From positions 15,438,001 to 15,502,000 of the forward strand of contig JAGIQG010000004.1 in NCBI GenBank assembly GCA_024679065.1: a stretch of DNA of 64,000 nucleotides. The letters run 5' to 3'. This DNA comes from Sphyrna mokarran (taxonomy: Eukaryota). This document shows positions 27,331 through 29,605 of the stretch, in pieces. The notes beneath the pieces are model-generated. The model was given only the letters and a program-made list of their open reading frames with translations, was not told the origin of the DNA and did not search any database. The stretch's first letter is position 1. Each line of letters begins with the position of its first letter. The position numbers were made by a program, and so were the translations under genes.

Positions 27331-28100
27331 CCAAATCTGGAGCCTGTTGGAAATTCAGAATCAGCCTTGCAAAGTCCTGACTTGAACTTGCCTATAACAC
27401 ATACAGTACCAGACATCATTAAGGAAAGCAATACCTCACCTTCTGTTCAGATGCAGAGACAACGTCTAGCTCCTATGTCAATGTTGGTTAAAGCAGTCAC
27501 TGATGACATCAGTGTAAAGAGGAAGATGCCAGAGGTTCACCATCAACTGTTCCAAAAGTGGCAACATCCAGACTGTTTGACTCAGCAATAGGGACTGACT
27601 CAATGGAGAGGAAATTACCCATCCTGCCCATAAGAATGGTAGTGGGCGAGAAATGGATCATGCAAAGATCTGTTGATCTTGGGCAGATTTTCCACTTTCA
27701 GGGAGAAAATGGCTCAAAACCCCATACAATGACTATTGTCGAACTTGTTTTATACTTGTGTTTTTGGACGTTCATTTTAGGCAGGGAAGAAATATTATAT
27801 ATCTGTAATTATTCTAATTGGCTCATGCAGAACAAGCTGCTTGAATGTATGCACTGCAAATGATCTAATCAACATAGTGCAAGAAACAGGAAGAAAAGAA
27901 TCAACCATGGAAGAGATTACAAATCATTAATAAATCTCCGTTCGATTTTAAAACTAAGTCTGTCCTGCGTATCATGTCTCCAATTCACAATAGTATGTGA
28001 GGCTTGTTAAAAAGGATATGAAATATCTGGCTTTATTGAGGAAGGAAGTTATATTAAACCTTTAGAAAACACTGATTAAGCCTCAGCTGGAGTATTGTGT

Positions 28101-28455
28101 TTTTGGCTAATATCGAGTATAGTAATCAAGAGTGGCGCTGGCAATGCTTCTCAGCCTTTTGGCTAAGATCAAGTGTAGTATCGACATGTTATGCTTGGTT
28201 GAAGTCATTAGGTTAAATTTTAGCTTCATTTGAAGCAATTTTTAAAAGCGGCATCTCGACCTTTTGGCTAAGATGTGAATGAGATCAAACCTTGGAGGAG
28301 GAGCTATGCCTACTCCAATCAGCTTGGATTATGTAGCTCAAGCCCAAGCCAGGAGGTGAGAGCCCTCTCTTGTCAGCTTAGATTGGGAATGTCTCAATTT
28401 GTTGAGATTCTGAATTGGACTTGATTTGATCGAATTGAAATAAAAACAAAAAAAA
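28101..28455 (+). mobile_element. U2 snRNA-derived, A-tailed retroposon with three U2 5' modules
   Basis: U2-like at 28101-28124, 28144-28182 and 28252-28274; A-rich tail 28438-28455; TSD-like ATTGTGTT (28094-28101)/ATTGTTTT (28455-28462). Confidence 0.75.
28144..28182 (+). ncRNA. U2 snRNA 5' fragment (nt 1-40), not a full gene
   Basis: AT-GCTTCTCAGCCTTTTGGCTAAGATCAAGTGTAGTATC vs U2 ATCGCTTCTCGGCCTTTTGGCTAAGATCAAGTGTAGTATC (38/40); no Sm site or 3' stems follow. Confidence 0.92.
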
Positions 28456-29605
28456 TTGTTTTCGTACCACACTTTAAGAAGGGTGCCAAGACCTTAGGTT
28501 ACAGAAGGTGTTTATAAGAATTGTATCAAGAGACAAGGGGTTTCAGTTGTGTGAAGAAGGTGGATTGTTATCTTCACTGAAGAGGAGATTTGACAGATGT
28601 GCCCAAAATTCTGAAGGATTGTGCTAGAATAGAGAGGCTGGAATCGCAGATTTAAGACTATTGGCAAAAAAACCATGAGGAAAATTGCTTCAAATCTAGA
28701 GATTTCTTGAGATCTGAAGTAAGGATGAGGGAAGTAGATTCTATGGCATTTTTCAAAAGGATATGGGACAAATGCTAGAAGGTAAAAAATTGTAGAGTTA
28801 GGGAAAGGTCAAAATGAGTGGGATTGACTTAGTTTTCTCTCAGTGAGGCTAACAACACTGCCTTCTCCATACAACTGAAACCCCGTATCCCTGATACAAT
28901 TCTCATAAACATCTTCTGTAACCTAAGGTTTTGGTATCCTTCCTGAAGTGTGATATGAACACAATCCACCAATGATCTCAGCTGGATTTTTACCACCCTG
29001 CCCACCATGGGGAAAAGAATGGGCCAGGGCTGGACAACGGAAAGGCCCATTAATCTCGGGTGGGATTTTATGGTTTCGGGATGAGCCAGGTCATCAAATT
29101 CCATAGACAAATAGACTGCCTGTGCTATCTAATTCTATCACCACTGTCAAAGGAATAAACATTTCCATATAACATGAATGAATTCATTCACGTAATTTAT
29201 GTATTTGAATACCTTCAGCACTCAAGCTGCCTCAAAAGTCATGCAATGGGCTGAGTTTTGGGCTTCCATCAATGTTAGAGATGGACAGGTGTCGCCAGAT
29301 GTGTGCTCTTTCTTCTGTCAGTTTATTTTAAGATTTTCTATTTTTGCAGAGGATTTGAATTTTCCCAACTTGTCAAGAAAGCAAACTCCACACAATTGTT
29401 TGTTTGGAGTACTGACAGGATAAATATACTAATTCATCATAGCTAGTTAAACAACTCCTCCCTGCAGACTGCAAAGATAGAAGAATATGAAGATAGCCCA
29501 GACTTGGTGAATTAAGCCACCAGAAGAATCTAAAGAGGTGGCAGAATGAACAAGAAAACAAATGGGTAAAAATGCAATAAAAGCTTCTTGGGGAAAAAAG
29601 AAAGG

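Follow-up and report, generated by a model that had tools for sequence, protein, structure and literature searches.

A SINE family of the shark Sphyrna mokarran that appears to be made almost wholly of U2 snRNA sequence and has copies in U2 genes

We detected in the genome of the shark Sphyrna mokarran a SINE family of about 4,100 copies which, as far as alignments can tell, is made almost wholly of U2 snRNA sequence, and which has copies inside U2 genes and directly behind the 3′ ends of a LINE that employs the same site in U2. One copy lies in the window, i.e., the stretch of 64,000 nucleotides that was analyzed (contig JAGIQG010000004.1, positions 15,438,001 to 15,502,000). Promoter-bearing loci that carry the SINE, tails joined to downstream U2 sequence, the insertion site in common with the LINE, and the stacking of the two elements make it likely that the family is transcribed from U2 promoters at sources in U2 genes and mobilized in trans, through its A tail, by a Keno-like LINE. 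In the reading we favor, its U2 head would also be masked by an antisense arm.

Results

The retroposon copy in the window spans positions 28143-28455 and represents a ~313-bp family element that is A-tailed and flanked by a TSD (Table 1). A U2 gene of the same genome, taken from a four-unit tandem array (contig C949, 17.326-17.351 Mb), served as the U2 reference. A preliminary description of this DNA had noted a ~355-bp insert splitting a CR1 and carrying three U2 pieces. This was borne out, as the decayed CR1 is interrupted at its LEYCV codons and all three pieces (28101-28124, 28143-28182 and 28251-28274) are present when compared with the own-genome U2, the last one matching nt 4-27 at 22/24 positions. 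The match of the second piece to U2 nt 1-40 also stands, but the count of 38/40 given for it requires one gap and becomes 37/40 in an ungapped alignment. The Rfam U2 model matches 28143-28265 (49.4 bits, E 6.5e-8), which is the sole significant Rfam match, and the family head contains stem-loop I, the U6-pairing region and GUAGUA. The small hairpin, whose U2 counterpart we take to be stem-loop IIb, the A-rich tail and both flanks had likewise been described, and all of them are present.

The inverted CR1 piece, said to preserve the flanking sequence at the equivalent place, indeed carries a single ATTGTGTT with matches to the host CR1 on both sides, so that the 8-bp TSD is well supported. Among the best 120 of 288 matches, the closest named relatives of the CR1 protein in the window are from Stegostoma (71% identity) and Hypanus (65-71%), and those from birds show about 37-56% identity. 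The host CR1 contains an inverted duplication (28455-28580 against 28840-28971), both arms of which carry a common ~8-nt deletion relative to other CR1 copies.

Table 1. Features of the SINE copy and its insertion site (positions in the window).
Feature	Position	Strand	Remark
Left TSD, ATTGTGTT	28094-28101	+	In LEYCV-coding part of decayed CR1
Extra U2 piece (U2 nt 15-38), copy-specific	28101-28124	+	21/24 identity
Linker, U2-gene flank -18 to -1	28125-28142	+	Alignment to U2-gene upstream sequence
Family head (U2 nt 1-40), ending at Keno/Utopia site	28143-28182	+	Fixed junction
Antisense copy of U2 nt 11-39	28186-28214	+	Predicted ~25-bp hairpin with head
Linker with short hairpin	28215-28251	+	Hairpin 3′ arm similar to antisense U2 nt 1-8
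Internal U2 module (U2 nt 4-33)	28252-28282	+	p 0.001 against U2
Two ~54-nt repeats	28281-28385	+	From diverged U2 nt ~24-62 region of older family
Small hairpin, homologous to U2 nt 68-84	28391-28408	+	Alignment via older family
ATTGR repeats, AATAAA (28439-28444), A-rich tail	28412-28455	+	Occupy place of U2 Sm site
Right TSD, ATTGTTTT	28455-28462	+	7/8 match
Inverted host-CR1 piece, empty site	28840-28971	-	Arms 86% complementary

A genome search with the window piece gave 3,668 candidates. An exact 17-mer spanning the head/body junction had 834 matches (6 for the reversed control) and one from the body had 1,556 (control 0); on contig C1, 19 of the 50 head matches were also body matches, a recapture that yields the estimate of ~4,100 copies. 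Structure was assessed in the first 100 body matches listed (95 on C1, 5 on C2). Some of the U2 head is retained in 86 of them, with 5′ ends at U2 nt 1-2 in 26, at nt 3-8 in 29, at nt 9-40 in 31, and further inward in 14. An A tail occurs in 90 copies, 23 of which also have a TSD, mostly of 10-17 bp, against 0-2 in three shifted controls. Hence the element is a retrotransposition unit of fixed structure and not a sum of chimeras, as supported by the junction matches, the subfamilies and the TSDs. The preliminary description had expected a mobile multi-copy family rather than a simple U2 pseudogene, and had suggested a body search of this genome with a count of tails and TSDs; the outcome agrees with that expectation.

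The copies form four clusters of differing age, with non-CpG divergences of 6.1-6.9% and 10.1%, and the window copy falls in the largest; over the 100 sampled copies, divergence from the column majority averages 8.6%. SINE-SINE stacks occur at four loci (L187, L248, L262 and L266). The head derives from U2 snRNA, and the element is shorter than 500 bp, non-coding and provided with 3′ poly(A). No pol III A box was found in the SINE sequence, runs of T4-5 occur at nt 15, 76, 97 and 120, and two weak matches resembling a B box fall to GATCAAG repeats of U2 origin, the box patterns being those we presume to be typical. With U2 as the only significant Rfam match and no A box, the element does not fit a canonical tRNA, 7SL or 5S SINE. 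The SINE shows no general U2-like target preference, since matches of at least 3 nt were seen at 7/90 insertion sites against a background of 6.5%, and 88/90 copies have no match of at least 5 nt to U2 nt 39 onward at the target. A near-majority SINE copy has 0.40-0.60 of its words in each of fourteen DNA or untyped sequencing runs, which come from eight studies of six organisms and one unlabelled sample, and one of which possibly underlies the assembly. The U2 head alone could give only 1-2/30 words, so that the SINE body is likely, on this word content, to be shared by several species.

The body had been taken for non-U2 sequence, a view that we have to revise: most of it is cryptic U2, namely an antisense copy of nt 11-39 followed by a diverged U2 5′ half that is recognized through an older U2-derived family. 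The antisense arm (element nt 44-72) is identical to antisense U2 at 16/29 positions in the window copy and at 16-18/29 depending on the subfamily, the oldest subfamily being the closest (18/29), and its differences from exact antisense U2 are mainly A>G and C>T. A sense-orientation origin of SINE nt 41-108, from U2 or from the older family, was rejected, as this stretch has no significant sense homology to either (p 0.39-0.68). Direct alignment of the SINE 3′ half to U2 in two arbitrary halves was not significant; nt 222-296 aligned directly to U2 with p 0.01 (p 0.09 for the window copy alone). SINE nt 135-190 and nt 190-300 each align to the older family with p 0.001, and as both do so, 28252-28438 is a partly duplicated, 3′-truncated older-family copy. 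The internal U2 module aligns to the 5′ end of the older family and corresponds to its head, now internal, and each ~54-nt repeat aligns both to the older family and to the other repeat (p 0.001).

The older family, reached through a short piece (L156), is ~225 bp long and consists of a diverged full-length U2 with an A-rich tail. It is represented by loci L307-L325 and L326-L335 (e.g., C794:18,343,540 and C1215:55,126,758); a search gave 160 candidates. An exact 17-mer had 584 matches (control 0), and at a mean divergence of 14.5% (19 copies) this number implies that the family likely comprises several thousand copies. Behind its head, it aligns to U2 from nt 40 to about nt 180 (p 0.001), and the Rfam U2 model matches 5/20 of its loci (E 2e-5 to 0.013). 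Two of its motifs are altered, which we take to be the branch-point motif and the first base of the Sm site. At one locus (L325:1632-1738, minus strand), a full-length U6 copy is fused to the older-family 5′ end, forming a template-switch chimera.

By prediction, a hairpin specific to the sense strand locks up the head of the SINE. For the initial 75 nt of the window copy, the folding energy is -24.9 kcal/mol (z -4.18, 0/200 shuffles), compared with -12.9 kcal/mol (z -2.0) for the opposite strand; the duplex of head and antisense arm has p 0.001, and the fold of the whole SINE majority sequence z -4.8. All nine transitions in the antisense arm keep the pairing via G.U, in the sense strand only. 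This G.U bias has on its own a p of about 0.014, and part of it could be a by-product of CpG decay or A-to-I editing. In the window copy, nt 33-38 have a predicted probability of being unpaired of 0.01-0.14, compared with 0.89-1.0 for nt 34-38 in U2 itself, and the prediction places both GUAGUA and the U6-pairing region in paired stretches. Given this predicted pairing and an end before the U2 Sm site, the SINE lacks features expected of a functional U2 snRNA. The earlier suggestion that the RNA could pair with U6 or with branch sites is for the same reasons, predicted head hairpin and absent Sm site, unlikely. In the small hairpin, one base pair varies by subfamily (TA 66, CG 11, TG 10 and CA 2 among 100 copies), and the change from U-A to C-G is compensatory. 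In the window copy, the fold of positions 28275-28395 is not more stable than that of shuffled sequence (z +1.3), which speaks against extending the structural claim to the whole element.

The U2 piece upstream of the head is not a family trait. In three genome-wide searches, this module with its linker was found only in the window and at C993:123.79 Mb, and it was present in 0/100 sampled copies, so that the three-module family design put forward initially is rejected. Of 17 further two-mismatch matches, one is a promoter-linked broken copy, one an older-family copy, and 15 have no element match. Extra upstream U2 pieces end at differing U2 positions (38, 48 and 58), and at L009 the SINE is preceded by U2 1-58, the linker being absent. 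The linker of the window copy aligns to the flank just upstream of +1 in L062, L236 and the U2 gene L036.

A U2 array at C949:17,326,629-17,358,027 holds four intact units with a ~8 kb period and a broken fifth, and is possibly collapsed in the assembly; a U2 search gave at least 48 scored candidates. The proximal promoter of U2 was found by query at six loci, i.e., the four intact array genes and two loci carrying the SINE. Two further promoter-bearing U2 genes lie below the reach of this query, which puts the SINE-carrying share at 2 of at least 8. One of the two (L091, C949:17,389,778) adjoins the array, and there the SINE splits a promoter-bearing U2 gene in the order promoter, U2 1-37, body, A6, U2 40-191 and U2 3′ flank; homology to the promoter extends upstream, and >200 bp are homologous on the downstream side. 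The other (L236, C557:766,571) consists of promoter, linker, head, 14 nt of body and a LINE piece. In these promoter loci, the element sits at U2 nt 38-40. In a third copy (L062), the U2 upstream flank is retained over about 33 nt. The SINE at L062:3250-3860 (C949:17,313,250-17,313,860) lies between two ~145-bp direct repeats that are 74% alike, and a paralogous segment 65 kb away has one of these repeats. Read-through from a U2 promoter, as surmised in the preliminary description, is supported by these three promoter-linked copies. Its idea of a master copy under a U2 promoter holds in so far as two of the six promoter loci carry the SINE; a young intact promoter-linked source was not found in the assembly, L091 being a member of the oldest subfamily and L236 a broken copy.

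At six loci (L075, L076, L077, L084, L090 and L091), the SINE tail is joined to U2 from nt 39-42 onward (nt 38-42 for the five dispersed copies), a pattern with 0 occurrences in controls. All but L091 are dispersed, three (L075, L084 and L090) belong to the main subfamily, and two dispersed copies extend into the 3′ flank, to the point at which dispersed U2 retrocopies end as well. In 2/90 sampled copies, the tail is followed by U2 39-48, behind which another A tail occurs (background 0.0004). No clear outer TSDs were seen around the SINE and U2 composites, and the joined copies could also be independent insertions into U2 retrocopies instead of products of read-through. The dispersed U2 retrocopies themselves (L037-L047, L053 and L060) include ~35 nt of gene 3′ flank with a common stop, as if derived from a 3′-extended precursor RNA. 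A second U2 sequence class, differing in its 3′ half and upstream flank, occurs as dispersed units at L087/L157 (C771:67.262 Mb), L094 (C1548:101.854 Mb) and L149 (C113:19.963 Mb), in the order U2 39-190, ~230-bp spacer, U2 1-45/60 and LINE piece. Two of these units sit behind a LINE 3′ end. This arrangement suggests a compact variant-U2 array, absent from the loci fetched, that was copied out by read-through.

The candidate partner LINE has 2,368 candidates in the genome. A full-length, decayed copy (L148:4483-9860, C760:34,170,983-34,176,360) has U2 7-58 at its start, and its coding part specifies two ZCCHC3-type RNA-binding domains, Exo_endo_phos, RVT_1 and zf-RVT, i.e., the two-ORF layout with APE endonuclease and RT of Keno; this copy itself forms part of a stack, lying between a further LINE end and a SINE copy. 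LINE 3′ ends abut U2 nt 38-41 at five loci (L078, L082, L093, L094 and L149), which were picked by their U2 junction or U2 match. The junctions lie at U2 nt 39 and 58, the 3′ junction falling at TCTGTTCTTATCAGTTTAAT (U2 nt 39-58) as in Keno. The U2-39 target is absent at 22/25 LINE 3′ ends, so the LINE is not strictly U2-specific, and the mostly dispersed positions of both LINE and SINE indicate that target specificity is relaxed. The assignment to Tx1/Keno rests on domains and junctions; 32 RT homologs from amphibians, fish and others carried no clade names, and a protein-cluster search with the RT piece returned generic RVT_1 clusters only. This LINE does not fit Utopia, as its endonuclease is Exo_endo_phos (APE-type) and not RLE.

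The SINE lies directly behind a LINE 3′ end in 4/100 copies against 2/1,027 windows (p 0.0008), and 3/25 LINE ends have a SINE behind them. The supposed link to the Keno/Utopia site is supported by the U2 head, which ends there, and by downstream U2, which resumes there. The autonomous LINE with the SINE 3′ end for which the preliminary description had suggested a search was found in part: a LINE at the same U2 site exists, but the two have no common 3′ sequence and share the U2 head alone. An origin of the SINE through a shared 3′ tail or by internal deletion of the LINE was rejected. The SINE 5′ junction lacks the duplication of U2 41-58 seen in the LINE.

Discussion

In the mechanism that we propose, the starting point would have been a derivative, truncated at its 3′ end and duplicated in part, of an older full-length U2-like element. 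Its entry into a U2 gene at the Keno site would have supplied it with a promoter and a new U2 1-40 head. Pol II would start at U2 +1 and the RNA would end at AATAAA and the A-tract, sometimes reading on into the remainder of the U2 gene. The LINE proteins would take the SINE RNA by its A tail, the two elements having no common 3′ end, with priming mostly at non-U2 sites. The antisense arm and the missing Sm site may prevent the RNA from behaving as a rogue U2, a property for which source copies may have been selected. The window copy would stem from a rare 5′-extended RNA, with one more U2 piece acquired by template switching or stacked insertion.

The copies might instead be processed pseudogenes of a functional variant U2-type snRNA gene, whose hairpins were kept for a cellular job. 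Structure-preserving changes between subfamilies, promoter-linked copies beside the U2 array, and an older family that is a full-length U2 look-alike (5/20 loci match Rfam U2 at E <= 0.013) would fit this, but several successive subfamilies with 6-10% non-CpG divergence, no intact young gene among the promoter-bearing loci, the lack of an Sm site, and ~4,100 copies against at least 48 U2 candidates make it improbable. We give about as little credence to a SINE transcribed from its own internal promoter or from flanking DNA, with the copies in U2 genes as by-products of LINE target preference. Among 100 copies, the 5′ ends pile up at U2 +1 with no common sequence further upstream, the rare 5′ extensions are U2-gene flank, and the element has internal T runs and no pol III A box. 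This has to be set against the >95% of copies lying outside U2 genes, the SINEU-2 copies with 5′ extensions from flanking DNA (Kojima 2015, PMC4494074), and a subfamily turnover that calls for several sources, compared with the few U2 promoters found.

It is very unlikely that each copy is an independent template-switch chimera of U2 and another RNA, or that the SINE was carried by CR1. The single fixed head/body junction, with its 834 exact matches, largely refutes such origins, and TSDs of 10-17 bp with A tails and the stacking behind Tx1-type LINE ends also argue against them, even if the variable extra U2 pieces (window, L005 and L009), the full U6 fused to an older-family copy (L325) and the abundance of CR1, which hosts the window copy, point the other way.

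Transcription from U2 genes with Keno-like mobilization may be extended, as a tentative and possibly mistaken step, to a two-generation elasmobranch SINE lineage that was born from U2 genes and hosted in them. Each generation would have entered the Keno site and seized the external snRNA promoter together with a fresh U2 head, and selection would have disarmed that head, in the older generation by alteration of the branch-site motif and in the younger one by the sealing antisense arm.

The shark SINE resembles the crocodilian SINEU-1, -2 and -3 (Kojima 2015, PMC4494074) in its U2-derived head, length of <500 bp and poly(A) tail, as well as in the lack of a pol III promoter, the recurrent 5′ addition of U2 pieces, the tandem insertions, and a putative Tx1 mobilization without a common 3′ tail. 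The extra U2 pieces end at varied positions, as do the 5′ extensions of SINEU-2. In contrast, the host is an elasmobranch, whereas SINEU was found only in crocodilians, and the partner LINE inserts at the Keno site of U2, whereas Tx1-Mar targets Mariner (PMC4494074). Moreover, copies inside promoter-bearing U2 genes point to a transcription route that was left open for SINEU, and an antisense arm masking the head has no mention in the main text of that study (PMC4494074). Compared by the described features of SINEU, the shark SINE works like it and probably arose independently, a separate origin being favored by a body that traces to an older U2-derived family in the shark genome.

The available text on Keno describes it as a U2-specific member of the Tx1 clade with an APE endonuclease (PMC6136364, PMC4640811, PMC4494074) and with U2 nt 39-58 as its target (PMC6136364). 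The shark LINE agrees with this in that its domains are of the APE-RT-zf set, its 3′ junctions lie at U2 nt 39 and its 5′ flank ends at nt 58, and the SINE makes similar use of the site. Unlike Keno, the SINE is non-coding and has no sequence in common with the LINE beyond the U2 head, and both shark elements are mostly dispersed. Utopia is, in the available text of PMC4640811, an RLE non-LTR element targeting U2, with a 20-bp TSD in reptile families and relaxed specificity in crocodilians; the shark LINE and SINE use the same U2 site, but the endonuclease of the LINE is APE-type. Tailless U2 retropseudogenes and snRNA-LINE chimeras (PMC4494074) also join U2 5′ fragments to other sequence, and such chimeras and retrocopies do occur in the shark genome, but the SINE differs from them in its fixed junction, subfamilies and thousands of near-identical copies.

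Conclusions

In the literature searched, which excluded Repbase/Dfam and most subscription papers, we found no U2-derived SINE from cartilaginous fishes and snRNA-headed SINEs described from crocodilians only; a term search of the available text of PMC5499810 gave no passage on snRNA-derived SINEs. How snRNA-headed SINEs without an internal promoter are transcribed is a stated open question in the available text of PMC4494074 and PMC5786205. The shark genome combines copies in U2 genes, read-through copies and a LINE at the same site, which opens an external-promoter model to direct testing. As the antisense arm suggests, the retroposon RNA may have been under selection against competing with the U2 snRNP. 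If the two-generation lineage is true, it would explain how promoter-less snRNA-headed SINEs get transcribed, and it would show such parasites evolving so as not to poison the spliceosome. Finally, thousands of TSD-flanked insertions, where common to several species, would serve as phylogenetic markers.
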